From NCBI GenBank assembly GCA_029262555.1, contig JAJCZE010000016.1, positions 25,129 through 89,128 on the forward strand: 64,000 bases of DNA, written 5' to 3'. How positions within the stretch are numbered: the stretch's first letter is position 1; each line of letters begins with the position of its first letter. Source of the DNA: Candidatus Babelota bacterium (GTDB lineage: Bacteria > Babelota > Babeliae > Babelales > Vermiphilaceae). Shown here one piece after another: positions 5,399-64,000 of the stretch. The notes beneath the pieces were generated by a model. It worked only from the letters and a program-made list of their open reading frames with translations. It was not told the DNA's origin and made no database searches. Both the position numbers and the translations under genes were made by a program.

Positions 5399-5504
5399 TA
5401 CAGTAGTAAGTGATGCATTCAGATTGTGAAATGTGAATGCGCGATTATTTCTAACACGTGCGTCATAGATTCATGAAATCGATCAGAACTGTGACAATTA
5501 AAAA

Positions 5505-5590
5505 GGAAAGTAGATACAAAAATAACAATACGTCTGCTGCTTTCTTTCGAACCTGACAGGGTATGTATCGCATTCCTTATCTACTTTCCC
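5505..5590 (-). ncRNA. ffs: Small (4.5S-type) signal recognition particle RNA
   Basis: The minus strand reads GGGAAAGTAGATA...CCTGTCAGGTTCGAAAGAAAGCAGCAG...TATCTACTTTCC followed by TTTTT. The central segment matches the conserved SRP domain IV (E. coli GGUCAGGUCCGGAAGGAAGCAGCC), here with a GAAA tetraloop. The ends form a 12-bp terminal stem. It sits directly upstream of dnaX, as in Bacillus. Boundaries are approximate. Confidence 0.7.
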
Positions 5591-5709
5591 AATTTTTATT
5601 TTCCGACTTGAATCCGCGTCGACCCAATGGTCCATCTACGCCTATAGCAGCTTCGGACAATCTTGCGCAAATAATGGCAAAGCCAGACGAAGCTCGCAAG
5701 AGCGAAGAC

Positions 5710-5801
5710 TGGTGGAGAGAGAGGGATTCGAACCCTCGATGCCCCTTTCGAGACATACATGATTTCCAATCATGCTCCTTCGGCCACTCAGACACCTCTC
5801 C
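5710..5801 (-). tRNA. tRNA-Ser (anticodon GGA), CCA encoded
   Basis: The minus strand reads GGAGAGGTGTCTGAGTGGCCGAAGGAGCATGATTGGAAATCATGTATGTCTCGAAAGGGGCATCGAGGGTTCGAATCCCTCTCTCTCCACCA. I can see the acceptor stem, the anticodon loop T-T-GGA-A-A, a long variable arm (class II tRNA) and the T-arm GAGGG/TTCGAAT/CCCTC. Confidence 0.9.
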
Positions 5802-8402: not shown

Positions 8403-9770
8403 CTAACAAACAACTTCGTTTTTCTCGATTGCAGCATTGTATGTTTTTGCAATGTATAATGCCGCAAACAACCAAATTGTAATCAAGCCACCCGAAACCA
8501 TCGTGCTAATAGAAAGGAAATAAGCAACCCCTTCCAATGTGCCATACTGAGCTGACAATGATCCACGGAATGTATTAATAGCTGAGCCCCCACCTTTTGA
8601 AAGACGAGACCCAAACATTTCAATCCATGCTTGAGATTTATATTTCGTTTCTTTAGTTGTTGGAATATAAAGCTGTTTTAACGTTGGCTGGTTTAATGCA
8701 TAGTTAATCGCTTTAGCAAGTACCATAATCCAAAACGCAGCTGCAAGCCATGTTGGATTAAATTTAACCATCAACACTGCACCTGTTACCAAAAGAGGTA
8801 GCAAAACCAAAGAAGCTCTTATACCAAGCCTTCTTTGAATATTGTTAATACCAAGAAGTACACACATCATTGAAACAAAACCAGTAAGATACGCATACTC
8901 AGACATATACGATGAAAGAGACGCTTCATCGAGATACACTGAAGCCGCTGTAGACTTAAAGTGAAAATCAAGAATAGTAATAATTACTTCATAAATTGTA
9001 ACAATCAAAAAGATACCAAATAGGTACGGCTGAGTCAGTAAAAGCTTTAAGCCTTCTAAGAAGCCGGGCTCTTCTGAAGCCTCTTTCTTCTCTTCTTTTT
9101 CAGACTCGTAACCTGCAAACTGAGCCGCAGGAACAATACGAACCATCAACCAGAAAAGAACCGCCATTAAAAGCATCAAGCCACCACAAATAGCTACAAT
9201 CGGAGCACTTGTTGTAAGCCCAAGACGCCTTGCATTCAGGAAAAATGGACCAACCATGTTTCCAAGTTGACCAAATAGTGCGATGAATGGGAATCCACGA
9301 CGTGCAGAGTCTGGAAGCGTTGTATCTGTTGTAAATGCCCAGAAAAGAGCAACAATCAATGACCCAAAGCTTTCAACATAAATATACCAGAACCAACCAA
9401 GCATACGCGTTGGGCTCTTAACCGTATTTGCGAGTCCATACTCTGGATTCATTAAGAAAAATGCAAATGTGAGTGCAAGTGCTGCATAGATTGAAATCAG
9501 CACATAGAACACTTTATGACGAGGGAATGTATCAATTAACTTACTGTACATGATAACCAGAGGAAAAACGACAAACATAGAAAGGATTTTAGCAGTTGGC
9601 TGCCAGCTTTCTAATCCAACGATCGCATTGAAAATACCATCCTTCATAGGACGCAATGTCCAGTACGTTCCAATAATAAGACCAAAAATAGAAGCCAAGA
9701 AACCAAATTTCTTCAGCTCATCGGTGCTATCAAATTTACCCCAAAGAGCTGTAGCAATACGCTTAAACAT
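8403..9770 (-). CDS. ntt: ATP/ADP (nucleotide) translocase, NTT/Tlc family, copy 2
   Basis: About 455 aa and polytopic. FWAFTTDTTLPDSARRGFPFI aligns with the same signature region in copy 1. The proteins are collinear throughout (KILSMFV, YIPT.K..K.KS.AWI..FGS...K.GGS). I prefer the start at MFKRIAT (9770) over the upstream ATG at 9806. Confidence 0.88.
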   Translation of the reverse strand: MFKRIATALWGKFDSTDELKKFGFLASIFGLIIGTYWTLRPMKDGIFNAIVGLESWQPTAKILSMFVVFPLVIMYSKLIDTFPRHKVFYVLISIYAALALTFAFFLMNPEYGLANTVKSPTRMLGWFWYIYVESFGSLIVALFWAFTTDTTLPDSARRGFPFIALFGQLGNMVGPFFLNARRLGLTTSAPIVAICGGLMLLMAVLFWLMVRIVPAAQFAGYESEKEEKKEASEEPGFLEGLKLLLTQPYLFGIFLIVTIYEVIITILDFHFKSTAASVYLDEASLSSYMSEYAYLTGFVSMMCVLLGINNIQRRLGIRASLVLLPLLVTGAVLMVKFNPTWLAAAFWIMVLAKAINYALNQPTLKQLYIPTTKETKYKSQAWIEMFGSRLSKGGGSAINTFRGSLSAQYGTLEGVAYFLSISTMVSGGLITIWLFAALYIAKTYNAAIEKNEVVC

Positions 9771-10127
9771 GCAGGTATTTCCTTCCTGATAATAAAAAAA
9801 GAACAATAAGAAACTGTCTAACTTCCTTTATGTTAGCAGACAACTTAATAATTGTAAAAATAATCATTGTTGAAAATTCTCATTCGAAAAAAATCATAAT
9901 GCCTGGCAATATCACATATTTAGGCCTCTCCGCACAGCGTTACAATTTGAAACGATAAATCAGGCCTCATTTCGAGACTTCAAGCAGCCTCTCCTTATAA
10001 AAAGAACCCCCATTTCATTGACAAATCGCTCAATGCCGATACCCTGATAATGTGGATTATTCTCATACTATAGGGGGATAAGTCCCCACTCAAATTGCAA
10101 TAAGAAAAATTAAAAGGGAATAAAACG

Positions 10128-12575
10128 ATGTCAGAAATACTCAAAGATATCACAATCACTGAATCGGTCGACGTAGAGCGCACAACGCTCCCTCTTTTAC
10201 CACTGAAAAATGTCGTTATTCTTCCAAAAAGCATTGTACCTATTATCGTTGGGCGATCGCTCTCTATTAAAGCGGTTGAATATGCTTTAAAAAAAGATCA
10301 CACCATTTTCATCACCTCTCAAAAAGACCAAGAGGTTGAATCTCCCGGCCAGGACGATCTTTTCGAGTATGGAACTCGAGCAACTATCTTAAAAGTAAGT
10401 CATATGCCTAATGGGGCGCTTAAAATCTTGGCTGAGGGTATCTGCCGATCGAAAATTGATGACTTTTCAGAGGCCGACGGATTTATCTCTGTTTCATATA
10501 CCGATTTACCGACTAGCAGCTTAGATAAAGAAGTAGAGATTCAAGCTATTTGGAGACAGCTAGAAGAGCTGTATCTTACCTATTCTCAACTGAACGACAA
10601 AGCTCCTGCAGATTTGGTTGAATCCGTAAAAACTCCAATCGATATTGACTATATTGCTGATACTATCGCCGTGCACATTACAAATTTAACGCTCCTTGAT
10701 CGCCAAAAACTTCTAGAAATTGCTGATCTTTCTGAGCGAATGATCGCATTGTGCCGAATGCTGCAAAAAGAAATTGAAATTTTGCAAACTGAACAGCGTA
10801 TTCGAGGCCGCATTCAAACACAGGTTGAAAAAAGCCAGCGTGAATACTATCTGACTGAGCAAATGAAAGCGATCAACAAAGAGCTTGGCCGAGAAGATCA
10901 AGCTGCTGAGATTGATCAAATGCGCTCAAAAACTAAAAAACTAAAGCTTCCTAAAGATGCGCAGGAAAAAGTGGAAAAAGAGCTCAAAAGACTTGAGCAA
11001 ATGCCTTCACTTTCTTCTGAAGCGGTAGTGAGTCGGAATTACGTGGATTGGATCACCTCTCTTCCATGGAGTGACGTAACAAAAGATACCATTAGCCTTA
11101 CGCAAGCAGAGCGTCTTTTAGATAAAAATCATTTTGGTTTGCAAAAAGCTAAAGAACGCATTGTAGAATTTTTGGCTGCTAAAAAGTTTTCTAAAAAATT
11201 AGATCGTTCTCCAATCTTATGCCTTGTAGGACCTCCGGGCGTTGGTAAAACATCACTTGCACACTCCATTGCTCAAAGCGTTGGGCGCGAGTTTGTGCGT
11301 ATTTCTTTGGGCGGCGTACGAGATGAAGCTGAAATTCGTGGACATCGTCGTACTTATATTGGTGCCCTTCCGGGAAAAATTATTCAGGCTATGAAGAAAG
11401 CTGGTGTTACTAACCCTGTAATCTTGCTTGATGAAATTGATAAAATGTCTCAAGATCTGCACGGTGATCCATCATCTGCATTGCTTGAAGTACTCGATCC
11501 AGAGCAAAACAAATCATTTGTAGATCACTTTCTTGATACAGAATATGATCTTTCAAAGGTAATGTTTATTGCTACTGCAAACGTTATGGAAAACATTCCA
11601 TACCCACTCTATGATCGCCTTGAAATAATTACACTCTCTGGGTATACCGATGAAGAAAAACGTGAAATTGCAAAACAGTTTTTACTTCCAAAAAATCTGA
11701 ATGAACTGGAATTAACAAAGCGTCAGTTCCAACTTCCAGATACTCTTATTGATATGCTTATTTCTGAATACACAAAAGAATCAGGAGTGCGCCAACTTGA
11801 GCGACTCGTTACCAAGCTCATGCGTAAAGCTATTCAAAAATTCTTAAAAGAAAAAGATACTAAGCAAATCAAGGTCACTCCTGATAGTATGAAAGAATGG
11901 CTCGGAAACATCGCATTCAAAAAAACAAGTCTTAGTCAAAACTCTGATCGCATTGGGCTTACAACTGGCCTTGCATGGACTGAAGTTGGTGGGGATGTTC
12001 TTGAAATCGAAACAACCGTACTTTCTGGAAAAGGAAGCGTTACACTTACCGGGCAACTGGGCGATGTAATGCAAGAATCTGCGCAAGCAGGAATGAGCTA
12101 TATTCGATCTCGAGCGCAAAAGCTTGGCCTTAAGAGCTCGTTTCATAATACCAAAGATATCCATATCCACATTCCAGAAGGGGCTACCCCAAAAGATGGT
12201 CCATCTGCTGGTATCACTATTGTTACCGCACTTGTTTCCGCACTTACTGGAATGCAAACAAAGTCACAGCTCGCTATGACTGGTGAAGTAACACTTCAAG
12301 GACGTGTGCTTGCAATTGGTGGATTAAAAGAAAAACTTCTTGCGGCAAAACAACACAATATGACTACCGTACTTATTCCTGAAGAAAACAAAGAAGATCT
12401 ACAGGAAATCAAACAAGAAGTAAATCTAGATGGAATGGAAGTTGTGACAGTAAACAATATGGATCAAGTGCTTGAACAAGCGTTTACTACTCCTCCATTC
12501 AAGAAAAAAGCAACTCGTAAAGCAAAACCTGCGGCCAAAAAGCCCGTAAAAAAGAAAATAACTCGTAAAAAATAG
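10128..12575 (+). CDS. lon: ATP-dependent Lon protease (LonA)
   Basis: N-terminal LON substrate-binding domain. AAA+ motifs GPPGVGKTSLA and LLDEIDK. Protease domain with catalytic Ser (PKDGPSAGIT) and Lys (GGLKEKLLAA). The C-terminal tail is Lys-rich (KKKATRKAKPAAKKPVKKKITRKK). Confidence 0.95.
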   Translation: MSEILKDITITESVDVERTTLPLLPLKNVVILPKSIVPIIVGRSLSIKAVEYALKKDHTIFITSQKDQEVESPGQDDLFEYGTRATILKVSHMPNGALKILAEGICRSKIDDFSEADGFISVSYTDLPTSSLDKEVEIQAIWRQLEELYLTYSQLNDKAPADLVESVKTPIDIDYIADTIAVHITNLTLLDRQKLLEIADLSERMIALCRMLQKEIEILQTEQRIRGRIQTQVEKSQREYYLTEQMKAINKELGREDQAAEIDQMRSKTKKLKLPKDAQEKVEKELKRLEQMPSLSSEAVVSRNYVDWITSLPWSDVTKDTISLTQAERLLDKNHFGLQKAKERIVEFLAAKKFSKKLDRSPILCLVGPPGVGKTSLAHSIAQSVGREFVRISLGGVRDEAEIRGHRRTYIGALPGKIIQAMKKAGVTNPVILLDEIDKMSQDLHGDPSSALLEVLDPEQNKSFVDHFLDTEYDLSKVMFIATANVMENIPYPLYDRLEIITLSGYTDEEKREIAKQFLLPKNLNELELTKRQFQLPDTLIDMLISEYTKESGVRQLERLVTKLMRKAIQKFLKEKDTKQIKVTPDSMKEWLGNIAFKKTSLSQNSDRIGLTTGLAWTEVGGDVLEIETTVLSGKGSVTLTGQLGDVMQESAQAGMSYIRSRAQKLGLKSSFHNTKDIHIHIPEGATPKDGPSAGITIVTALVSALTGMQTKSQLAMTGEVTLQGRVLAIGGLKEKLLAAKQHNMTTVLIPEENKEDLQEIKQEVNLDGMEVVTVNNMDQVLEQAFTTPPFKKKATRKAKPAAKKPVKKKITRKK

Positions 12576-50145: not shown

Positions 50146-51005
50146 TCTCCCCTAGCCGTTCGCCCTGCCTGCCAGGCGTAGCCTTGGCGTAGACTGGAGC
50201 GTGTCGAAGGGTTCTGAGCGGAAAAAATTATTTTTCTAAATAACTGATCACCAACAACTCGATCTGAGTCTAAAATTTCTTTTGAAAAAGATGATATTTT
50301 ATACGCAAGCACAGACTCTATAAACGTATCTATTTTTTCATTTCGTGGAATGATATCGCTTTCTTGTGCAGTCGATTTTAAAGCAATCAGCTTCCCAATA
50401 TCTTGATCAAAATCTATATATGGAGCAAGCCCTGTTCGTAAGGATTTCATATCCATGGGGGGCAACGTGCCATGCACTTCAATCCATTTAAAAGCAAATG
50501 CCGGACGAATCGCATAGCAATACAATTTCACTTTCACGCTCTGCTCATCGCATTCTATTTGTTTCCAAATTGCCTGGAACAACTTATAATAATGCGTTTT
50601 TATATGCTCAAGATCGGCAGTTTTTTGAACATACTGCCAGAGCTCATCGACGATCGTTTTTTCTGTTTTATAAACAATGGGCGATTGCAACCATTCAATC
50701 AATATTGAATTTGATTTCAGCGCTAAATAAAGTGCTTTTCGAATATCCCACCCGTTTAAATCTAACGGCACTCCGAGCTGAGGATCGTGCAAAATATCAG
50801 TTTCTAATACATCTCTCTGCTGAATAATAGAAAAATAATCATCATAGGGCCGTACATATAAAAATCGCACATCATAATCGCTATCAACTGAGGGAAAGCC
50901 CCACGCACGACTGCCAGACTCTATTGCAAAAATAATAGTAACTTTATGCGTACTTTCAAACTCGGTCAGTTTTTGCGCGATATGATTGTTTATAGCGGTG
51001 GTCAT
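50142..51005 (-). CDS. COG3541 / pfam10127-type nucleotidyltransferase (Pol-beta superfamily), copy 1
   Basis: The NTase motif AIESGSRAWGFPSVDSDYDVRFLYV and LNGWDIRKALYLALKSNSILIEWLQSPIVY are typical of this family. The last 25 or so codons (...NPSTRSSLRQGYAWQAGRTARGD) come from a dispersed repeat. The start overlaps the stop of copy 2 (ATGA). Confidence 0.85.
   Translation of the reverse strand: MTTAINNHIAQKLTEFESTHKVTIIFAIESGSRAWGFPSVDSDYDVRFLYVRPYDDYFSIIQQRDVLETDILHDPQLGVPLDLNGWDIRKALYLALKSNSILIEWLQSPIVYKTEKTIVDELWQYVQKTADLEHIKTHYYKLFQAIWKQIECDEQSVKVKLYCYAIRPAFAFKWIEVHGTLPPMDMKSLRTGLAPYIDFDQDIGKLIALKSTAQESDIIPRNEKIDTFIESVLAYKISSFSKEILDSDRVVGDQLFRKIIFSAQNPSTRSSLRQGYAWQAGRTARGD
50146..50222. 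repeat. Solo arm of the palindromic element, with an internal insertion, embedded in a gene's 3' end
   Basis: The minus strand reads CCCTTCGACACGCTCCAG, then an insert of about 26 nt, then CAGGGCGAACGG. Compare the left arm of the 31233 element, CCCTTCGACAAGCTCAGGGCGAACGG. Confidence 0.5.
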
Positions 51006-52009
51006 GATAATTCTGCTTTTTGTATTTGTTGTAAATATGTCTTTTCAATAAAATCATCAATTAAATGTGGATCACTGGCCTCGGGTAACGTTGATTTCAA
51101 GGCAAGCGCTTCCACCTTGCCTACTAACTGTTCAATTTCTTGCAACACCTCATCATATGAGATGGTTCCTAATTTGATGGCAAATAAGCGCTCTCGCTCT
51201 GGACGTGGAAAAGTAAGGCGATGATCGGTAAGAAATTCCAATGCTTGATGCCCAATGCGAACTGCATGCGATAGCGCCTTCCAATCAGCCCCTGAGTTTT
51301 GTTCAGCCTGTTTTGCCCGGTCGCCATATTGATGAATAACGTTTTGCACAATTTGACGTGCATTTTTAATAGATGCATGAAATGCAATTTTTTTTCCGCA
51401 AACTTGCAGATGCTTCTCTGTAATACCATTTGGCTGCATAAACGAAGTTATTGAAAGATCTGAATGAGCAGAAACAACTGGCATCACTGTATCTATAGTT
51501 TTTACAAGCGGGGCCATTGTTCCATATGTTTGTTCTGCCGATAACAGCACTTCCAATACAGCTCGTGCTGCACTCAATTTTGATCCCTTTTTGCCATACT
51601 TATATGCCTGCTGCTTGCAATACGCCACAAACGATGCCGCTTGTTTAGTTAATAATTGCATCGATAATTTCTTCATCTCATTCCACAGATGATCTGGTGG
51701 CTCTAAAAAAGATGATTCGGGAGCAAAAAGCATTTCTAATGCAAAAGATTGCCCTTTGGCAACAGAACGCAAAAATTTTTCTGGGCTATACAACTCAAAA
51801 TCAGTATCGGTAGAATCATTTTTCTCTCCCAGCCCTTTACTTCGAGTGGCAACAATAACTGGCTCTACTCGCTGCAAAAGGATGTCACGAGCCGAAGGAA
51901 GATAAACGCCCTTGATGTCCAAATCTGATTGAGGGGTATTGGTGCCGTAAAGATGCGATCCATATCGTATCAGCACTATGGATTTATATTTTTTTTTATT
52001 TTGCATCAT
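51002..52009 (-). CDS. COG3541 / pfam10127-type nucleotidyltransferase, copy 2 (long form)
   Basis: The NTase motif YGSHLYGTNTPQSDLDIKGVY, ALEMLFAPES and the C-terminal helical region (YGDRAKQAEQNSGADWKALSHAVRIGHQALEFL) are typical of the family. I prefer an ATG at 52009 or 52006 over the TTG at 52018. Confidence 0.85.
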   Translation of the reverse strand: MMQNKKKYKSIVLIRYGSHLYGTNTPQSDLDIKGVYLPSARDILLQRVEPVIVATRSKGLGEKNDSTDTDFELYSPEKFLRSVAKGQSFALEMLFAPESSFLEPPDHLWNEMKKLSMQLLTKQAASFVAYCKQQAYKYGKKGSKLSAARAVLEVLLSAEQTYGTMAPLVKTIDTVMPVVSAHSDLSITSFMQPNGITEKHLQVCGKKIAFHASIKNARQIVQNVIHQYGDRAKQAEQNSGADWKALSHAVRIGHQALEFLTDHRLTFPRPERERLFAIKLGTISYDEVLQEIEQLVGKVEALALKSTLPEASDPHLIDDFIEKTYLQQIQKAELS

Positions 52010-52021
52010 ATATATCAATTA
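51854..52021. repeat. 168-bp direct repeat, copy 1 (5' end and start region of NTase copy 2)
   Basis: It aligns base for base with 52654-52821, an offset of exactly 800 bp, with about 11 mismatches by eye. The distal 90 bp or so has a single mismatch. Confidence 0.9.
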
Positions 52022-52143
52022 TTGAAAAAGTTTGTATCAATTCATCTGCCATGATTGAAATCGTCTCACAATGCCATTAATTACACTATCCAGTCGCCAG
52101 TATTAGCATTAAGTGGACCAAAAATATAGAAATGCTTTTTTAT

Positions 52144-52614
52144 TTATTTATCTTTTAAAATTCCTTGGTGCTGCTTTTCTTCATCAAAATATTTAATTAA
52201 AAAAGTTTTACTTAAAAAAGGATTTTTCTTATTGATTCTAACAAACTCTACCTCAAAACCGCATTTCTTATAAAAACCTGGAGCTTGAAAATGAGAGGTG
52301 ACAAGATTTATGTTGTTATATCCTTTGCCTTTGAAAAAACTCTCTAATTCTGTCAGCAATTTGCGCCCTAAATTTCTACGTCGATATGAAGGATGTACCC
52401 ATATATCATCAATATAAATTTCTGAAAACGCTGTATAGGCCTGCAAAGCTCCTATTACAATACCGCTTTTATCCTTCATTACAAAAATAATCTTTTTATA
52501 ATTGCAAACAATTCCCTTTTTAGTCTCATCATTTACATGTCCTTGATAAATCAAATCTTCTATACTCGAAGGAAGTTTATCAAGTTTTTCTATTATATAA
52601 CCCTGATTATTCAT
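52144..52614 (-). CDS. GNAT family N-acetyltransferase
   Basis: 156 aa with acetyl-CoA motif A (VHPSYRRRNLGRKLLTELESF) and the C-terminal FYKKCGFE. Confidence 0.88.
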   Translation of the reverse strand: MNNQGYIIEKLDKLPSSIEDLIYQGHVNDETKKGIVCNYKKIIFVMKDKSGIVIGALQAYTAFSEIYIDDIWVHPSYRRRNLGRKLLTELESFFKGKGYNNINLVTSHFQAPGFYKKCGFEVEFVRINKKNPFLSKTFLIKYFDEEKQHQGILKDK

Positions 52615-52647
52615 TATGCATTTCTTTTTTTACAATGTTTTGTTCAA

Positions 52648-52809
52648 TTAAAAAATAACCGGCTCTACTCGCTGCAAAAGAATGTCGCGAGACGAAGGAA
52701 GGTAGATGCCCTTAATGTCCAAATCTGATTGAGGAGTATTGGTACCGTAAAGATGCGATCCATATCGTATCAGCACTATGGATTTATATTTTTTTTTGTT
52801 TTGCATCAT
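52648..52809 (-). pseudogene. Truncated N-terminal fragment (53 codons) of a COG3541 nucleotidyltransferase
   Basis: It translates to MMQNKKKYKSIVLIRYGSHLYGTNTPQSDLDIKGIYLPSSRDILLQRVEPVIF-stop. This nearly matches the first 51 or so residues of the 51002..52009 product, then ends where the repeat ends. Confidence 0.8.
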
Positions 52810-52821
52810 ATATATCAATTA
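52654..52821. repeat. 168-bp direct repeat, copy 2
   Basis: See copy 1. This copy contains the stop codon of the 245-aa ORF and the NTase fragment. Confidence 0.9.
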
Positions 52822-53521
52822 CCTTTTGAGCGCATGCTTGTAATTCTTGAGCTAATAATTCATTGAATTTTGTTTTCTCGTCATTTTCATAAAGAATATT
52901 TGATAAACAATAAAGGCGTTTTAACTGAAGAAAAAGCGTATAGGATATTCCAGAGTAAACATCTGGATTTTCTAATATACAGCTACTTCGTGCTAAAAAA
53001 TTCTCTACGTTATTTGAAATGAAAAAACCTTCATTATGCTTACTCATTTTTTTTAAATAACCAATAAACGGCTCCACATGCTTTTCAATTAGTTCATTAG
53101 TATACTCAAGGCTATATTCACGCTCTGCTCCAATGATCGAAGGGATCTTGTTATTTTTTTTATGCAATTTTATCGATTTTTTAATATGTATGCTTAACCT
53201 TTTTGCAAGCTCACTAACTTCTTTCCATTGTTCTGTCTTTGAAAAATTATCAAGCATCTCATAGCCTATGATCAAAAAACTAAACATTTGAAATCTTTGG
53301 AATAACTCTAGACCGGTGATTCCGATGATTTGTTGAAAATCAGGAGCATGGCCTTCTAGGATATCAAAGCTCATTGAGCTCGGAAGCCCATGACAATCAA
53401 AACCACACCAAAAATCCATTTCCTGGATATTTTTCTCGATATTGGGATCTGCGATAAAATCAAGAGTGGAACACCATTCGTTTATAAGTATGCTATATAA
53501 GCGCTCATTAGAAAGATTCAC
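52784..53521 (-). CDS. Hypothetical protein (245 aa), AT-rich
   Basis: Uninterrupted ORF with a GTG start that overlaps (GTGA) the stop of a 37-codon upstream ORF. Its last 8 or so codons and its stop lie inside repeat copy 2. No family recognised. Confidence 0.6.
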   Translation of the reverse strand: MNLSNERLYSILINEWCSTLDFIADPNIEKNIQEMDFWCGFDCHGLPSSMSFDILEGHAPDFQQIIGITGLELFQRFQMFSFLIIGYEMLDNFSKTEQWKEVSELAKRLSIHIKKSIKLHKKNNKIPSIIGAEREYSLEYTNELIEKHVEPFIGYLKKMSKHNEGFFISNNVENFLARSSCILENPDVYSGISYTLFLQLKRLYCLSNILYENDEKTKFNELLAQELQACAQKVIDIYDAKQKKI

Positions 53522-53631
53522 TGAATGTATCGCCTTTGTAATAAAAGAAATTCAAGAATTCCTTTTGCCTCTTGAGTGGATTTATCTACGATAAGAAGTG
53601 CAAGATGAATCTTAATTACGTCGATATTCAT
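53518..53631 (-). CDS. Possible 37-aa leader or small protein coupled to the 245-aa ORF
   Basis: AAGAGG RBS 6 nt upstream of the ATG. The product is MNIDVIKIHLALLIVDKSTQEAKGILEFLLLQRRYIQ. Its stop overlaps the GTG start of the next ORF. It is below the ORF-track cutoff, and no homology is recognised. Confidence 0.4.
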   Translation of the reverse strand: MNIDVIKIHLALLIVDKSTQEAKGILEFLLLQRRYIQ

Positions 53632-53746
53632 ATATGGCCTCTTATATGCTATTTTTGAATTATGAGACTCACCTTTATAATATTATATAAGCCCATTTAT
53701 GACAATCTACTAAAACAGATGGTTTTTGTGGTTTAAAAAGGCAAAC

Positions 53747-54511
53747 ATGCATAATTTTCTTGATCTTATAAAAAGGCAAAAGGTTGCTGACGTAAAAAGG
53801 CTTCTTAAAGACGGCATTGATCCAAATATTCCAAAAATCATCTCAACTGATCCGTATGTGGTCGAACTATTCCCCTTAATCGTGGCTGTTAAAACTGGAA
53901 ATTTGGAGATCGTAAAACTCCTTATTGCACATGGAGCAAAGGTTGATGTAAGTACCATTTCTGATGGCCAAACGCCACTACACACTGCATTTTTTATTAA
54001 TGGCGACTATCCACAAGCCTTTACTCAAAAAGAGGGTGCGCAAAAAATAACTGAAATGGTCCATTATTTAGTTTCGCTCGGCGCAGATATAAATGCCGAA
54101 GGTGGATTTTGCCTTACCCCCTTTTTATTGGCAATAGACGCAGTAAAGAAGAAATGCGTCGATGTGAGCTTGCTGCAATATTTAATTGATCATGGTGCAG
54201 ATGTAAATAAAGTGCTTACGTGCGTTGATGAAAATAAATCTCGAACCACTGCGCTTGGCGCGGCAATAGAAGTGCATAGTTTAGATACAGGAGGACACCC
54301 CAAGTTCATAAACTTGGAGATTTTTGCATTGCTCATCAAAAACGGAGCTGACCCATCAATTAACCCAAAGGGATTTACTCCACTTCAAGAAGCGTTCGAT
54401 ATACAAGAACAATTGCAAAACAACTTAACCAACTTGAAACAACAAATTAATAACGCTGAGAAAATTGTTGAATATTTAAAATCCGCAACGCAAATCAATA
54501 ACAATGAATAA
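53747..54511 (+). CDS. Ankyrin-repeat protein
   Basis: ANK units such as FPLIVAVKTGNLEIVKLLIAHGAKVD and QTPLHTAFF. I prefer the ATG at 53747 over the TTG at 53726. The stop overlaps the next start. Confidence 0.88.
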   Translation: MHNFLDLIKRQKVADVKRLLKDGIDPNIPKIISTDPYVVELFPLIVAVKTGNLEIVKLLIAHGAKVDVSTISDGQTPLHTAFFINGDYPQAFTQKEGAQKITEMVHYLVSLGADINAEGGFCLTPFLLAIDAVKKKCVDVSLLQYLIDHGADVNKVLTCVDENKSRTTALGAAIEVHSLDTGGHPKFINLEIFALLIKNGADPSINPKGFTPLQEAFDIQEQLQNNLTNLKQQINNAEKIVEYLKSATQINNNE

Positions 54512-55223
54512 AGTTACCGAACTCATCCAAACAATTAAGTCAAATGACGAAGTACTGGTCGAAAAACTTCTCACGCAGGGTGCAGATCCAAATGGGTATA
54601 TGCCTGAAGCAGATACACGTATCTTTACAGGAGCAACTACTCCTTTAATGGCTGCATCCCGTCAAAAAAATACCGCAATTTTAAAACTTCTCGTTCGATT
54701 TGGCCTTACAATACAAGGAGCTGAACCATTGCGTGCTGCAATCGCTCCAAACTATTTATTGCAAGCTCGAATTTCACAAGACGAGGTTCGCATGCGTACG
54801 ATGGAAACAATAAAATATTTAGTCTATCACGGTGCTGATTTGAATGCCCCTGATGAGCTCTTCGAACTAACACCATTCTTGATGGCGATCTATGAAAATG
54901 ACCTAGAATTAGTAGCATTTTTTATTGATCAGGGTGCAATTATAAATCAAATCTCAAAAAAACGAAATACAAAACTGGTTACTCCCCTTTTAGCTGCCAT
55001 TGAAACACATTCAGCTCCAATAGTTAAGCTGCTCTTGAAACATGGAGGAAACGCGAATCAAATCGTTGAACATAAAGAGCCGCTTCAATACTCTCGAGAT
55101 ACGCTTACATTACTTAAAACTAATGCCAATAAAATACAAAAACTATCTACCAACAACGATAAAATTATCGATCTATTGGTTCGTAACGGCGCCAAGACTG
55201 ATTATCCATGGATAGATAAATAA
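54504..55223 (+). CDS. Ankyrin-repeat protein
   Basis: ANK units: TTPLMAASRQKNTAILKLLVRFG, TPFLMAIYENDLELVAFFIDQGA and VTPLLAAIETHSAPIVKLLLKHGGNAN. Confidence 0.88.
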   Translation: MNKVTELIQTIKSNDEVLVEKLLTQGADPNGYMPEADTRIFTGATTPLMAASRQKNTAILKLLVRFGLTIQGAEPLRAAIAPNYLLQARISQDEVRMRTMETIKYLVYHGADLNAPDELFELTPFLMAIYENDLELVAFFIDQGAIINQISKKRNTKLVTPLLAAIETHSAPIVKLLLKHGGNANQIVEHKEPLQYSRDTLTLLKTNANKIQKLSTNNDKIIDLLVRNGAKTDYPWIDK

Positions 55224-55373
55224 CAATTGATATAAACTTTCAAATAGTCGGCTTCTGAACTTAAAAAGTACCAATACCACCTCTCACAGAGCTCATCAAA
55301 GCCCCTTTTTACTAAAATGTCCCTATTTGATATATTATTCATAAGAATATAATTGTTATTTTCCTTAGGGGTT

Positions 55374-56198
55374 ATGATGAATAAACAGTTTTTAGTATTT
55401 CCTATGATCATTGCAGTGCTAATAGGTGCTCTTTCTGGGTGTATTTCTCAGCAGCATAATAAACAACTACCCACAAGCACGTTCGAAACACCGCGAGAAA
55501 CTCCAAAAATCGTGCGTTCAGAAAAAAATAACATTATTGATTTTTCAATAAAACCACGAGCTGTGCCTGAAATAAAAATAGGTGAATGCGCCTATTGTGG
55601 TAAAGAAACCGAGAATGCATGTGAACGCTGTAAACTTACCTGCTACTGCTCTCAGGAATGCCTAAAATTAAATAAGTGGAAGCACTCAGCAGAATGTGAC
55701 GAAATTAGACAAGCGTATTTTGGCGACTTAGAATGCATGAAAAAGGCTTGCTATGCTTACTTTCGAAAAGCAGCGCTCTCGCCAAATGACTCTTTCTTTT
55801 TGAAACGAGGAATGTCCTGGTTTCAGAGAACTCTTATTAGGTTAAGTCAAGATATCGAATGCTCTAAAGATCCCTCTACCATGGCGGCTATAGAGCAGTT
55901 TTGCATGGAAGTAGGTTCGTTTACTCAGCCACTAGTTAAAAATAATATTTGCACGGAAGAAGATTTGAAAAATCTTGGCAAAGAAGTTTTTTCAGAGAGC
56001 ATTGAATGGGTAGCTCGCATAACTAAAGCAAATATGCTTGTACCGCCTTACGACATAAGAATATATGGGCTTAAAGTATTTAAAAATCCTGAACTTAATA
56101 TTGAAAACGAATTTATACCTAAAAATGAGTGGTATGCTAAGCGCATGAGTGTATTACAAGAATATGAAAAAAGACTGAATGACATCGTGTCTTCATAA
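55374..56198 (+). CDS. Putative lipoprotein with a MYND-type zinc finger
   Basis: Signal peptide with a lipobox (MMNKQFLVFPMIIAVLIGALSGC). CAYCGKETENACERCKLTCYCSQECLKLNKWKHSAEC fits the MYND pattern C-x2-C-x7-C-x2-C-x4-YCS-x2-C-x5-W-x2-H-x3-C. Confidence 0.85.
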   Translation: MMNKQFLVFPMIIAVLIGALSGCISQQHNKQLPTSTFETPRETPKIVRSEKNNIIDFSIKPRAVPEIKIGECAYCGKETENACERCKLTCYCSQECLKLNKWKHSAECDEIRQAYFGDLECMKKACYAYFRKAALSPNDSFFLKRGMSWFQRTLIRLSQDIECSKDPSTMAAIEQFCMEVGSFTQPLVKNNICTEEDLKNLGKEVFSESIEWVARITKANMLVPPYDIRIYGLKVFKNPELNIENEFIPKNEWYAKRMSVLQEYEKRLNDIVSS

Positions 56199-56234
56199 AA
56201 ATGGGTAGATGAATAATAATTGGAAAGGAGTTCC

Positions 56235-56834
56235 GTGAAATGTAAATGGATTATGCTATCACAGCTGCTACTATTCATCATGTCTTTCCCTTTTCTTTTT
56301 CGATATCTCTCATCAAATAAACCAACCCACGACAAGCAGCTTATTGAAAGCATTTCAAAAAAAGAAATTTCCGGCCTTTTGCAAGAAAGCCCCTATGAAC
56401 CAATGGTTGATCTGACGCATAAAACGCGATTGATTCGTTTTTTAATGGAAAATGGGCACACAGATTTTGTATTTGAAAGCCATGATGCAGAGGAAGCTGA
56501 GAAGCTTCGTGATAACCTCAGTCCGGCTCGCCTAGCCTTTGATATGGATGTAATAGATGACGAATATCCCTTAGTAGTCGCATGCTTTTATCGAGAGCAA
56601 TCTCAATATAAGCCATTTTTGACTCAATTGCAGGAACTTGCAAGGCAAAAAGAAGATATTAAGTTTGTCCTTGTTGATGGAGATAAGCTCTTTTCCCTCG
56701 TTGAATGGGCCGCAATTCAGACTTTTCCAACGCTCTTATTCGTCAAAGATGGCGAAATCGTTGATCATTTGGACGATGCTACTATAGAGCAGGTCAGGCC
56801 CAAAATAAACAACCTCGAAGCTAAACAGCCATAA
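56235..56834 (+). CDS. Thioredoxin-fold-like protein lacking the CxxC motif
   Basis: The C-terminal half resembles a thioredoxin fold (PLVVACFYREQSQYKPFLTQLQELARQKEDIKFVLVDGDKLFSLVEWAAIQTFPTLLFVKDGEIV), but REQSQY sits where CxxC would be. The N-terminus is hydrophobic. The start is uncertain (TTG 56220, GTG 56235 or ATG 56253). Confidence 0.55.
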   Translation: MKCKWIMLSQLLLFIMSFPFLFRYLSSNKPTHDKQLIESISKKEISGLLQESPYEPMVDLTHKTRLIRFLMENGHTDFVFESHDAEEAEKLRDNLSPARLAFDMDVIDDEYPLVVACFYREQSQYKPFLTQLQELARQKEDIKFVLVDGDKLFSLVEWAAIQTFPTLLFVKDGEIVDHLDDATIEQVRPKINNLEAKQP

Positions 56835-60273: not shown

Positions 60274-61665
60274 ATGGGACTAGGTGTACAAGATTCAATA
60301 AAGCGATATTTTAAAGCTATTGCGGATGTAGATAGCAAAAAATGCCTTTTTTTATTAAAGGTGTCCGCATTACAACAAAAGCCATTTTGGGAAGGAGTTA
60401 AGGGGGAGTGTAACACGACAGTTTTGATGGCGGCAGCAAGAAAGGGTTTTTTTAACATTGTAAAGTTGATAGTGGAATCGGGGGCAAATGTTAATGCTAA
60501 AAGCAGTTCTGGCTGGACAGCTTTAATGTCTGCTGCATGCAATCTAGAGGTTTTAAAATATTTAGTAGATGCCGGAGCCGAAGTCAATGCACAAAATGAT
60601 TGTGGCGAGACGGCGTTGATCATTGCGGCAGGATGTGGGCAACTTGAAATTGTAAAGTATTTACTCCAAGTTGGAGCCGATCTTGACGCACAAACTGATT
60701 GTGGCGAAACGGCTTTGATCTGTGCGGCAGAGTATGGGCATCTTGAAACTATAAAATATTTATTGCATGTGGGAGCCAATCTTGATGCTAAAGATAAAGG
60801 TGGCAAGACAGCTTTAGATCGAGCATTGGCGAAAAAAGAGCAAGAGGCTGCAGAATTACTAATCCAGGCATCGTCAGGTGCCGACTCTAGAAAGAATGGT
60901 TGTAGCAATGCCTTATTGGATGCATTGTGCCGGGAAAGACTTGTAGATGATATTGAGGACCTAGGGGCATTATTCAAGAAAATTAAATATCTCTTGAAAT
61001 CAGGAGCCGATGTTGATGCTAAAGATGGGGATGACAAAACAGTTTTAATCCGGCTTGCATCGATAAAAGATTCATTGATTGGAGAAGGGGATTTACAAGA
61101 GATTGTAGAGTTTCTATTACAGGCGGGTGCCGATATTAACGCTAAAGACAGGAATGGGGATTCAGCTTTAAAGCTGGCTATGCTGAACAGATATTGGAAT
61201 ATTGCAAAACTTTTCATTCAGGCTGGTGCAAATGCCTACTCGAAAGACGCCCAGGAGGATACCATTATGAAGTGGGCTATATTGCATGAGAGTTATTTGG
61301 TGGAGGATATGTTTCAATCTGGAGCTGATATTAATTATAAAGATGATTATGGAATGACCCCGCTGATGTATGCTGCACGATCAAAGGATCATTATTGCGC
61401 TTTAACTGTTACATTTTTATTGGAGAACGGTGCGCATATAAATGAAAAAGACAATAATGGATGGACTGCGTTGATGCATAATGCTGCAACTCATTCAGTT
61501 GCTGTGCCGGATAAATTTCCTGCGCCTTGGGGGGATAAATTAGAGGTTGCAAAACGTTTTTTGCGGGCTGAAGCAGATCCCAACGTTAAAGACCATAAAG
61601 GACAGAGTGCACTTGATTTAGCTGCGACAGATGAAATAAAGAAGTTGATTGAAGATAAGTTGTAA
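60274..61665 (+). CDS. Ankyrin-repeat protein (array member 3)
   Basis: Multiple ANK units, including two adjacent 99-bp units that are highly similar at the DNA level. C-terminal motif ALDLAATDEIKKLIEDKL. Confidence 0.9.
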   Translation: MGLGVQDSIKRYFKAIADVDSKKCLFLLKVSALQQKPFWEGVKGECNTTVLMAAARKGFFNIVKLIVESGANVNAKSSSGWTALMSAACNLEVLKYLVDAGAEVNAQNDCGETALIIAAGCGQLEIVKYLLQVGADLDAQTDCGETALICAAEYGHLETIKYLLHVGANLDAKDKGGKTALDRALAKKEQEAAELLIQASSGADSRKNGCSNALLDALCRERLVDDIEDLGALFKKIKYLLKSGADVDAKDGDDKTVLIRLASIKDSLIGEGDLQEIVEFLLQAGADINAKDRNGDSALKLAMLNRYWNIAKLFIQAGANAYSKDAQEDTIMKWAILHESYLVEDMFQSGADINYKDDYGMTPLMYAARSKDHYCALTVTFLLENGAHINEKDNNGWTALMHNAATHSVAVPDKFPAPWGDKLEVAKRFLRAEADPNVKDHKGQSALDLAATDEIKKLIEDKL

Positions 61666-61684
61666 GAACAGCAGGGGAGATTGA

Positions 61685-64000
61685 ATGGGACCAAGTATGA
61701 ACGATAAAATCAATGATATGCTCCTTGCGATACAGGCGGGTGACATTAGAACCGCTTTAAATTTATTGCAAGCATCAAATCTGGATGTAAATGTAGCGAA
61801 TGCGATTGGCTATACTCCTTTATTGATAGCGGCTGAAAATGGTCATTGTGAAATTGTAGAACTGTTACTACAAAAGGGCGCTGAAGTTAACCATCAAGAT
61901 AGAAACGGCTACAGTGCTTTGATGTTTGCTGCCTTTCTTGGTCACGAAAAAATGGTTGAGGTGCTTTTGAATGCGGGAGCGCAAGTAAATGATAAAAACA
62001 ATCGCAACTTAACTCCTTTGTTATTAGCAATGGAAGGACACAAGGCGGAGATTTCCGAAGGCAAAACTAATTGCTATCACTTGAACGTTTTTGAGTTATT
62101 ATTGCGAAAAGGTGCGGATGCAAATTCACAATACTCAAAAAAGCATGCATCTCGAACAGAATACATACTTGAAGTAGCTATTGAGTTTGGAGACAATGAA
62201 ATCACATCTTTGCTTTTACAATATGGCGCCAATCCAACGTATGCCTTGCACGAAGTTGTGAGGCGAGGGGATATAAAGAAGGTGAGATTGCTATTGGGCT
62301 GGGGTGCCGATATAAATGATAACCGAATGAGATCAGTTCTTGCATCAGCGATTGACAATGATCGTGAAGAGATCATTGAAATTTTGCTACAAGAAGGAGT
62401 CCGCTGTGAACTTGGAACATTAATATCTACAATAAAAGTTGGAAAAATATCTCTCCTAGGGAGACTTGTCGAAACAATGGGGCTGTCTGCACAGGAACGA
62501 TTAGAGTTAATTACTTTTTGTATTACACATAATTATCATGACATAGCAAAAAATCTTCTGACAAGGTTGAGCGATGAGGAATTGCAAGCTCAGGGTAAAA
62601 ATGGTGAATCACTATTAATTAGGGCGATAAAAGATGGAAACTCATCACTTGCAGAACAGATTATTTCGCGCGTTTCAGTTACACATTGCTCACTGAAAGA
62701 CCATACAGGAAAAACGGCGCTTATGTGGGCAGCGATAAGAGGCCTTATTACAGTAGTAAAGCAACTTTTTCTTATTTTGGAATCAAATGATACTGTATCA
62801 ACAGATGAAGATGGAAAAACAGCTCTAATGTTTGCACTTTGTGCGGGGCACGTTGAAGTATTTGAACTGCTGAATAATTGTAAGGATGAAAAAATTGAAG
62901 GTACTCTTGAAGTGCTGAAAGATGTTATTCAAAAATCAAACTACGACCTCCTTTCATTTTATGACAATTCATTTTTTGAAAATATTGAATCATTTAACAA
63001 GGCAAAAAACGAATTTATTGCTGCGGAAAAAGGTCGGAAAGAACTTGTTCGAAAATTGTTGGAAGATAAATTTCCAGAAAAAAATTGGCATTGGAATGAT
63101 CTAGCATCTTTATGTGTGCAAGCGGGCTTGCAGCAAGAAGATATTTGGGCAAAGCAGGAAGAGCAGCTTGTCAGAAGCGCCCTGTTTGGTGCAACCGAAA
63201 ATGGGGACTTAGAGTTGTTTACTTCTCTTTTAAGGAGGCTTAGTCCGCAACAATTACACTTGCAAGATGGTATTGGAAAGTCAATCCTTATGAGACTAAT
63301 TGATTGGGTTGCTTATGAAGAAGAGGCGGAAAAAATGTTGGAGCAGCTTTTTCAGCATCTGGAAAAACATGCTCCACAGGTATTGATTATTCAAGACGAA
63401 GTGGGGCGTACCGCATTGCATTATGCCGCATGGTTACGTCACTATGACATTGTAAGATACTTAATTTCGCGTTTACCTCGCGAGCAACTATGCATACAAG
63501 ATAAATTTGGCATCACACCAATTCAAGCTTCTGTTTGCTATATGGATAGAAATAATATCGAAGATATAGAGGTGCGAATAGTCGAATTATTTTTTAATGC
63601 CGGCTTATCTCGTGATCAGCTAAATAGTAAAGATAGCTATGGATGGTCTCCTTTCATGTGGGCGCTCATTGTACCTGAGGAGGAAGGAGTTGAAAAACTA
63701 AAAGAATTGTTTTTCAACGCAGGGTTTACCTGGGAGGATGTTTCAGCTGCATCACAGGACAAAGAGAATTTCACAGTACTTGGGTGCCTTATGGAGTCTG
63801 GAAAATTAGAGTGGGTACAAGCACTAGTTGAAAAAACTTCTTCGGAAGTCGTTTCAATCTCGGCATATATTGGAGAGGCGCTAATAAAGGCTACTAAACG
63901 AAAAGATTTCGATAAAATTTTTGAAATTGTTGCACATAAAGATCCCCACTCTGATTGGGCATCAATTCGAAATAAATATGGTGAGACAGTGTTAATGCAT
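61685..64000 (+). CDS. Large ankyrin-repeat protein (array member 4), 3' end outside the window
   Basis: It is absent from the ORF track because no stop occurs. I translated 61685-64000 codon by codon and found 772 sense codons with no stop (MGPSMNDKINDMLLAIQAGD...YGETVLMH). ANK units include GYTPLLIAAENGHCEIVELLLQKGAEVN. Its start context (GAGATTGAATGGGAC) mirrors that of the preceding gene (GAGACTTGAATGGGAC). Confidence 0.88.
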   Translation, partial: MGPSMNDKINDMLLAIQAGDIRTALNLLQASNLDVNVANAIGYTPLLIAAENGHCEIVELLLQKGAEVNHQDRNGYSALMFAAFLGHEKMVEVLLNAGAQVNDKNNRNLTPLLLAMEGHKAEISEGKTNCYHLNVFELLLRKGADANSQYSKKHASRTEYILEVAIEFGDNEITSLLLQYGANPTYALHEVVRRGDIKKVRLLLGWGADINDNRMRSVLASAIDNDREEIIEILLQEGVRCELGTLISTIKVGKISLLGRLVETMGLSAQERLELITFCITHNYHDIAKNLLTRLSDEELQAQGKNGESLLIRAIKDGNSSLAEQIISRVSVTHCSLKDHTGKTALMWAAIRGLITVVKQLFLILESNDTVSTDEDGKTALMFALCAGHVEVFELLNNCKDEKIEGTLEVLKDVIQKSNYDLLSFYDNSFFENIESFNKAKNEFIAAEKGRKELVRKLLEDKFPEKNWHWNDLASLCVQAGLQQEDIWAKQEEQLVRSALFGATENGDLELFTSLLRRLSPQQLHLQDGIGKSILMRLIDWVAYEEEAEKMLEQLFQHLEKHAPQVLIIQDEVGRTALHYAAWLRHYDIVRYLISRLPREQLCIQDKFGITPIQASVCYMDRNNIEDIEVRIVELFFNAGLSRDQLNSKDSYGWSPFMWALIVPEEEGVEKLKELFFNAGFTWEDVSAASQDKENFTVLGCLMESGKLEWVQALVEKTSSEVVSISAYIGEALIKATKRKDFDKIFEIVAHKDPHSDWASIRNKYGETVLMH

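Follow-up and report, generated by a model that had tools for sequence, protein, structure and literature searches.

An acetyltransferase gene in a Candidatus Babelota bacterium between direct repeats that are probably the leftover of two diverged operon heads joined in tandem

The displacement of operon genes, in situ, by xenologues or divergent alleles was reportedly described by Omelchenko et al. in 2003. The subject is also treated elsewhere (PMC1480536), and homology-facilitated illegitimate recombination, or module displacement, has been proposed for the effector-immunity arrays of type VI secretion systems (T6SS) and for the orphan modules of Rhs and contact-dependent growth inhibition (CDI) systems (PMC5361080, and de Vries and Wackernagel, 2002 and Prudhomme et al., 2002 cited therein). 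A gene fragment left beside an insert is also known from icd of Escherichia coli, where insertion of e14 or phage 21 leaves an icdC pseudo-fragment and excision of e14 fuses icd with icdC (PMC13626634). The locus described here lies in a 64,000-nucleotide (nt) stretch of DNA from a Candidatus Babelota bacterium (contig JAJCZE010000016.1, positions 25,129 to 89,128; hereafter the window), on whose minus strand a gene for a 245-amino-acid (aa) protein (245') is followed by the truncated start (stub) of a nucleotidyltransferase (NTase) gene, a GNAT acetyltransferase gene, the complete NTase gene (335 aa) and the gene for an RlaP-family nucleotidyltransferase (287 aa). If the 245/246-aa gene (245 aa in the window, 246 aa in a relative) and the first ~158 nt of the NTase gene that overlaps it are taken together as an operon head, the direct repeat that brackets the GNAT gene is probably what remains of two diverged heads placed in tandem, with the GNAT gene at their joint and the redundant 246-aa gene later deleted.

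The two copies of the repeat (Table 1) align without gaps over 171 nt with 12 mismatches (93% identity in a repeat search and a base-by-base comparison), are offset by 800 nt and lose their similarity sharply at both ends, so that a chance origin cannot account for them. A gapless repeat at this offset had been reported in a preliminary description of the DNA, and only its size needs amendment from the 168 bp and about 11 mismatches given there. The same description had identified copy 1 as the genuine 5' end of the NTase gene, in agreement with the ATG at 52009 and an N-terminal PF10127 match, and copy 2 as a 53-codon stub (counted from the ATG) that also provides the stop of the 245-aa open reading frame (ORF), which is found at 52786-52784. 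When the whole window was searched (blastn and tblastn), these were the only two copies in 64 kb, and the repeat is therefore not a dispersed, multi-copy element. The copies share mismatch-free runs of 53, 23, 20 and 20 nt, and 629 nt lie between them; this interval had been characterised as essentially just the GNAT gene, which is indeed present, but the last 43 nt (52067-52025) are the relic of another gene.

Copy 2 preserves the arrangement of an operon junction in some detail. The stub begins within the 3' end of 245', the overlap of 26 nt being the same as that of the intact pair of genes in the relative L001 (see below), and it breaks off after codon 52-53, where the GNAT segment is joined on, with a TAA at 52650-52648 just beyond the repeat. 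Over residues 1-52 the stub is 96% identical in aa sequence to the NTase, its N-terminal match to PF10127/PF01909 being weak, and it is probably translated into a 52-aa fragment of which no function is expected.

A single close relative was found in the searched collections, namely the contig L001 (JGI Ga0114918_10000581), which carries the NTase homologue P0002. A degenerate DNA pattern derived from the repeat matched no genome contig and, among the metagenome contigs, only L001 itself, while an NTase-based search of the genome contigs yielded no further close relative, and exact-sequence look-ups of the window NTase and GNAT proteins returned no contig. Gene order is shared by L001 and the window over gyrB, tilS, a TonB-like gene, RlaP, NTase and the ankyrin genes, with nt identities of 71-84% (about 80% overall), and the L001 NTase and RlaP orthologues are 82% and 79% identical in aa sequence, respectively. 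At the junction in L001 the GNAT gene is absent, the repeat sequence is present in a single copy and the 246-aa gene overlaps the NTase start by 26 nt; one repeat copy and a direct junction of the upstream gene with NTase are what the preliminary description had expected of a relative without the GNAT gene. Three segments of L001 are matched by blastn: 9770-11565 corresponds to window 52024-50229 (copy 1, NTase and RlaP; 82.7%), 9746-9943 to window 52848-52651 (copy 2 and the last 27 nt of 245'; 87.4%) and 9055-9097 to window 52067-52025 (86%). In the same comparison, 3.2 kb of the window rather than 0.8 kb (52068-55271), comprising the GNAT gene, the stub, 245' and two ankyrin genes and having L001-like sequence on both flanks, stands where L001 has 155 nt of intergenic DNA, and the extra DNA reaches 2.4 kb past the repeat. 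The region upstream of the operon (53726-56834) is a hot spot of gene gain or loss.

Some further differences between the two contigs were observed. Window positions 55353-56834, encoding a zf-MYND protein (55353-56198) and a thioredoxin-like protein (56220-56834), are also without an L001 counterpart, and a 46-nt piece of the L001 intergenic region persists at window 55272-55317. The L001 NTase gene (9785-10792) contains an in-frame TGA at codon 47 (9923-9925), where the window has CGA, and is otherwise 82% identical in aa sequence over 334 residues; the TGA marks either a recent pseudogene or a sequencing error.

The relic between the GNAT gene and the NTase gene, immediately upstream of copy 1, corresponds to the head of the 246-aa gene of L001, with a local alignment score of 56 against a maximum of 30 for shuffled sequences. 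It opens an 18-codon mini-ORF (MADELIQTFSIIDIYDAK, then stop), in which codons 1-9 of the 246 gene run in frame into its final 8 codons (the L001 residues at the respective positions are MADEPIQNL and IIDMYDTK...), so that ~670 nt are absent relative to L001 9098-9769. Outside these 43 nt, the GNAT 3' flank aligns with the L001 intergenic region no better than shuffled controls do. Since an L001-type 246 head stands upstream of copy 1, two copies of the upstream gene must once have coexisted, of which one was deleted. The statement in the preliminary description that the insertion had destroyed neither neighbour consequently does not hold, the L001-type 246 gene having been cut down to an in-frame relic of 18 codons (52052-51996). 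Between the stop of the mini-ORF and the NTase ATG there is an overlap of 14 nt; the stop/start arrangement found before the NTase gene in L001 is kept in this way, which may be the reason that an in-frame deletion survived, and chance alone gives an in-frame state in one case out of three. Three novel joints can be recognised at the locus: at J1, NTase position ~158 meets the GNAT 5' flank, at J2, the GNAT 3' flank meets the 246 gene at position -15, and J3 (~52025) is the in-frame deletion within 246.

Comparison of 245' with the L001 gene points in the same direction, in that 245' is not the counterpart of 246 but a second, strongly diverged copy. The two proteins share 34% aa identity, and in a codon-aligned sliding comparison the body of 245' is ~50% identical to 246 at the nt level, with third positions near saturation, whereas the last 21 codons are ~84% identical (87% for the last 21 codons and the stub together); the similarity to 246 falls to ~50% just upstream of 52848. 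The composition of 245' is also atypical, with a GC content of 31.8% (28% at third codon positions, GC3) compared with 38-43% in the neighbouring genes, and no similarity was found between the region upstream of 245' and the L001 upstream region. The reading of 245' as a fast-evolving orthologue of the L001 gene was considered and rejected, as a separate L001-type 246 head survives at 52067-52025.

The substitutions within the repeat carry a record of its history. Nine of the 12 mismatches are synonymous transitions at third positions (binomial p = 0.004 for at least nine of 12 at position 3 by chance), the other three are conservative first-position changes, and none falls at position 2. With L001 as outgroup, five changes are assigned to each branch and two are not polarisable. 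Had the stub been dead since its duplication, substitutions would be expected at every codon position and at a higher rate than in the live copy. The predominance of synonymous changes and the even split between the branches thus argue that copy 2 was part of a working NTase gene through most of the period after it split from copy 1, and these small counts suggest that it would derive from the functional NTase gene of a related lineage or from a full-length paralogue. The copies differ from each other at 7.0% of positions and each differs from L001 at 11.5%; either the source of copy 2 was closer than L001, or the copies have been partly homogenised. The mismatches are distributed unevenly, a single one lying in the proximal 77 nt and the other 11 in the remaining 94, and a recombination breakpoint inside the repeat, considered on this account, is not claimed (max-chi-square p = 0.09).

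The GNAT gene itself is clearly assigned to its superfamily (PF13508, 56 bits against a cut-off of 27; PF00583, 54.5 bits against 20.7; E ~1e-15), but it is a generic member, for which no NCBIfam equivalog was matched at its cut-off. It has the lowest GC content of the region (29.3%; GC3 22.9%). The nearest homologues are ~70% identical in aa sequence, the named ones coming from Holosporaceae, Legionella/Fluoribacter, Parachlamydiales and Simkania, which are likewise associated with protists, and their genomic contexts differ from that of the window, DNA similarity ending at the limits of the coding region with no flanks in common. On account of this foreign composition and these unrelated contexts, the GNAT gene is best read as acquired horizontally from outside the lineage, and bacteria living in protists inhabit an environment often called a 'melting pot' of gene exchange (PMC11323580). 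The homologue contexts hint at a mobile, resistance-like gene pool. In contigs of ~28-29% GC, one of the closest homologues adjoins an insertion sequence (IS)-like HTH_23/28/29/32 protein and one an APH(6)-family gene (L012:1129-3158 and L014:533-1997).

Table 1. Coordinates of the repeat copies, genes, remnants and joints at the GNAT locus.
Feature	Window positions	Strand	Evidence and remarks
245-aa gene (245')	52784..53521	-	ORF; strongly diverged second copy of the 246-aa gene of L001; all-alpha
L001-like tract, 198 nt: last 21 codons of 245' and repeat copy 2	52651..52848	-	blastn to L001
Direct repeat copy 2	52651..52821	-	repeat search, direct comparison
NTase stub ORF, 56 codons from TTG, 53 from first ATG	52648..52818	-	ORF listing, repeat comparison
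AT-rich spacer (19% GC), stub to GNAT start	52615..52650	-	composition; joint J1 at ~52650/52651
GNAT acetyltransferase gene, 156 aa	52144..52614	-	PF13508 and PF00583
GNAT 3' flank, 76 nt	52068..52143	-	no L001 similarity; joint J2 at ~52067/52068
246-gene head relic: 15 nt of upstream sequence and first 9 codons	52025..52067	-	blastn and local alignment
18-codon in-frame mini-ORF, MADELIQTFSIIDIYDAK and stop	51996..52052	-	translation, three-way alignment; joint J3
Direct repeat copy 1, working 5' end of NTase gene	51851..52021	-	repeat search, direct comparison
NTase gene, 335 aa, PF10127-related Pol-beta-type nucleotidyltransferase	51002..52009	-	Pfam, L001 orthologue
RlaP-family nucleotidyltransferase, 287 aa	50142..51005	-	PF10127, 225 bits

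These observations can be arranged into a short sequence of events. The ancestor would have been L001-like, with the intergenic region, the 246 gene, NTase and RlaP. DNA of a closely related lineage, probably part of the 3.2-kb block, would then have been joined just upstream of the resident 246 gene, bringing with it 245', a very different allele of the upstream gene, and the start of its own working NTase gene. The join would have been made by ordinary cellular recombination, homologous on one side and illegitimate on the other, in a manner comparable with homology-facilitated illegitimate recombination or with an unequal or Campbell-type crossover. Favoured here is a one-sided homologous event, in which a donor block extending to position 158 of the incoming NTase gene was anchored upstream and illegitimately joined near the GNAT gene, as this takes the smallest number of events if the ancestor was L001-like and accounts for all of the 3.2-kb difference. 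The GNAT gene would have come from a more distant, AT-rich source and would already have adjoined one of the partners. Finally, the redundant resident 246 gene would have been lost by the in-frame deletion that produced the 18-codon leader ORF and left the stop/start overlap with NTase in place. As a result, a diverged homologue would have taken the place of the upstream gene, and the GNAT gene would have been gained within an apparent single transcription unit. A consensus scan places the best, and sole good, promoter-like site upstream of 245' (53705-53677) and no terminator-like site between the minus-strand genes, so that 245', the stub, GNAT, the mini-ORF, NTase and RlaP are probably co-transcribed as one unit.

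This course of events resembles the displacement proposed for T6SS and Rhs modules in that a diverged incoming module would have come to lie beside the resident one, with a conserved neighbour as anchor, relics left behind and no recombinase; it differs from the T6SS arrays in comprising a single displacement and in having the conserved element, the NTase 5' end, downstream of the variable gene. As in xenologous displacement, one gene of the operon has been swapped for a distant homologue (34% aa identity for 245') next to an orthologous neighbour (82% for NTase). Whereas such displacements are usually inferred from phylogeny alone, the stub, the relic and the trapped gene are still visible here.

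Several considerations weigh against the proposed course. The assignment of resident and incoming DNA may be reversed, a resident 245' with an incoming unit of GNAT, relic and copy 1 fitting the data equally well. With one close relative, the ancestral state is not polarisable, and L001 could itself have lost DNA. The substitution counts are small, and the 5:5 split between branches does not reject neutral decay of the stub (p of about 0.08 by the author's own estimate). The clustering of mismatches in the distal part of the repeat, which would be the signal of conversion or crossover, is not significant in a max-chi-square permutation (p = 0.09). The apparent mosaic boundary at ~52848 is defined by ~37 nt outside the dual-coding overlap and coincides with a motif conserved in the protein family (CAQ..I.D). 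Co-transcription and translational coupling, lastly, are suggested by consensus scans only.

The Campbell-type crossover proposed in the preliminary description accords with the flanking repeats and with the empty, single-copy site in L001, just as in known insertion-duplications, where direct repeats of the homologous sequence flank the insert and a relative has the empty site. A simple circle carrying the GNAT gene and a piece of NTase, however, is contradicted by the position of the relic and by 245': after its integration into an L001-like junction, the resident 246 gene should lie upstream of copy 2 and donor DNA upstream of copy 1, and the opposite is seen. Nor is a circle or a vector backbone evident, unlike in simple Campbell insertion. 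In a modified form, 245', NTase and RlaP would be resident, and an 800-bp, non-replicating circle from the L001-type locus of a relative, with GNAT, the remnant of 246 and the NTase 5' end on it, would have been integrated by RecA-type recombination within the NTase 5' homology, which would have been duplicated around GNAT in the process. The unit between equivalent points of the repeats then consists of exactly one repeat and the unique DNA, the relic lies upstream of copy 1 as expected for circle-derived DNA, a GNAT-less site with a single copy is known, the identical runs of 53, 23, 20 and 20 nt suit a homologous crossover, and no site-specific machinery is present. However, the circle would have to hold three novel joints beforehand (GNAT flank to 246 upstream sequence, the in-frame deletion in 246, and ring closure), the compositionally atypical 245' would have to be the resident gene, a separate replacement would be needed to explain the L001 246 gene versus the ank239-ank261-245' genes of the window, and no circle or second copy of the unit is seen in the window. 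This origin is considered unlikely, but the one available relative does not discriminate between it and the course favoured here.

Duplication in situ is a distinctly improbable source of the repeat. Here the operon head (upstream region, 246 and NTase 1-158) would have been duplicated in tandem, with the GNAT gene at the joint, followed by deletion of the downstream 246 and by replacement or fast divergence of the upstream 246 to give 245'. The copies are indeed closer to each other (7%) than to L001 (11.5%), the proximal 77 nt differ at one site, and the 3' end of 245' resembles that of the L001 gene. Set against this are the number of events, which is the largest required by any of the explanations; the 34% aa identity of 245' beside a 93% identical stub, which cannot arise in situ; the nine of 12 synonymous mismatches and evenly split branches, which clash with a stub dead from the start; and the lack of likeness between the regions upstream of 245' and of the L001 gene.

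The notion of a dedicated mobile element fares less well. In the domain scan, neither the unit nor the ORFs covered from ~35.6 to 61.7 kb matched a recombinase, transposase or integrase, confirming the earlier remark that no recombinase is encoded nearby. There are no meaningful terminal inverted repeats in the GNAT unit of the kind looked for in a transposon or IS, and the duplication is both long (171 nt) and diverged, unlike a short target-site duplication; an attC-like structure, as in an integron gene cassette, is also absent, the 76-nt 3' flank holding only AT-rich chance inverted repeats. Taken together, these results make a dedicated mobile element unlikely. The more specific case of a decayed site-specific integrative element that targeted the NTase gene, of the type of e14 or phage 21 at icd, and then lost its integrase and remainder, is very improbable. 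It would explain an intact target gene on one side and a mostly synonymous pseudo-fragment on the other, and the 20-nt identical run near the distal end of the repeat is a candidate att core. The likeness to icd-icdC also extends to the insert lying between an intact gene and a short, mostly synonymous fragment, and to the functional chimera that a copy-to-copy deletion would yield. In the icd case, though, there is a site-specific integrase, a 15-kb prophage and duplication of the gene's 3' end, whereas here the 5' end is duplicated, the unique DNA amounts to only 629 nt and no integrase or recombinase occurs in the unit, in ~15 kb on the upstream side or in ~10 kb on the downstream side. Moreover, the supposed replacement end holds the relic of an L001-type chromosomal neighbour, which indicates a chromosomal origin, and the extra DNA relative to L001 runs 2.4 kb past the repeat. 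An assembly artefact, either a two-strain chimera or a mis-resolved graph loop, is scarcely credible even for a contig that is probably metagenome-derived and has a 53-nt identical run as a possible graph branch, since J1, J2 and J3 lie in unique sequence rather than at k-mers common to the copies, any path through GNAT includes distal copy 2 and copy 1, and relic and stub make biological sense against the independent sample L001.

The upstream gene belongs to a very small family. An exhaustive search of representatives among 1.8e9 proteins returned 14 family members at E < 1e-3; there are 13 distant relatives of the 245-aa protein, of which the L001 246-aa protein is the best, and a word-indexed search retrieved the self-match only. 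Nothing in Pfam, NCBIfam or PADLOC matches the 245-aa protein, and its confident AlphaFold2 (AF2) model, which is all-alpha (pLDDT, predicted local distance difference test, 86.8), has no significant fold match in the PDB. PADLOC likewise found nothing for the four proteins of the locus, and there is hence no sign of a known defence system; a toxin, effector or immunity role for 245/246 has no support from the Pfam, NCBIfam, PADLOC and PDB fold searches. Members of the family (P0242-P0254 and the window copy) have conserved C-x-LDCC and CAQ motifs, the Cys motif being partly lost in the window copy, and the family also occurs away from NTase genes, as in homologue P0244 (L008), which has no NTase neighbour.

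NTase and RlaP are the stable, conserved core pair, with the upstream gene as an accessory. The RlaP protein matches PF10127 over the full profile and above the curated cut-off (225 bits), and the NTase matches it in its N-terminal half only (41 bits, cut-off 23). RlaP enzymes extend the damaged 3' ends of RNA by one or two nucleotides (PMC12776372). The NTase stop is overlapped by 4 nt by RlaP, and the pair with this overlap is kept both in L001 and in the distant relative L006. Among ~1,100 NTase homologues a single close one was found (P0002, 81% identity), the next being 63% identical. The contexts of the distant homologues (L003-L007) contain no 245-like gene and are uninformative for the junction; in one of them (L006:2521-4322) NTase and RlaP, with the 4-nt overlap, lie downstream of a phosphoribosyl pyrophosphate (PRPP) synthetase gene without a 245-like gene.

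In the wider window, ankyrin genes take up a large share of the 40-64 kb interval, and an ankyrin-repeat ORF of more than 770 codons (61601-64000) continues past the 3' end. From this richness in ankyrin genes (compare PMC4776705 and PMC6561590) and from the names carried by the best NTase hits, the organism probably belongs to Dependentiae/Babeliales. The only RNA genes detected in the window are a bacterial small signal recognition particle (SRP) RNA (5498-5593) and a tRNA-Ser(GGA) (5710-5801).

A more far-reaching interpretation is conceivable, in which recombination is anchored at the conserved NTase start, the 245/246 gene and the NTase 5' end form a swap-prone, polymorphic module, and the 800-bp unit is a homology-targeted cassette without a recombinase, although the likelihood of this is put very low. 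If it applied, the unit (GNAT, the leader mini-ORF and a replacement NTase 5' end) could enter by a single crossover and leave by recombination across the repeat, the target operon would be functional throughout entry and exit, and exchange would take place among related protist-associated bacteria. Homologous recombination across the repeats could in any case remove the 800-bp unit and give a clean 245'-NTase junction with at most 2-3 conservative substitutions. The caution to be drawn is that a gene bracketed by repeats is not necessarily a mobile cassette.

The locus is a further example of insertion-duplication and in-situ displacement by general recombination and involves no new mechanism. 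What distinguishes it is the preservation of the intermediate scars, namely the truncated duplicate start, the in-frame relic of the displaced gene, the trapped foreign gene and the empty site in a relative. On the course of events proposed above, in which two diverged operon heads were joined in tandem, the locus would be a fairly direct illustration of how general recombination alone allows a host-dependent, ankyrin-rich bacterium to insert a foreign gene at an overlapping gene junction, with a fast-evolving neighbour being swapped while the NTase-RlaP pair stays expressible.

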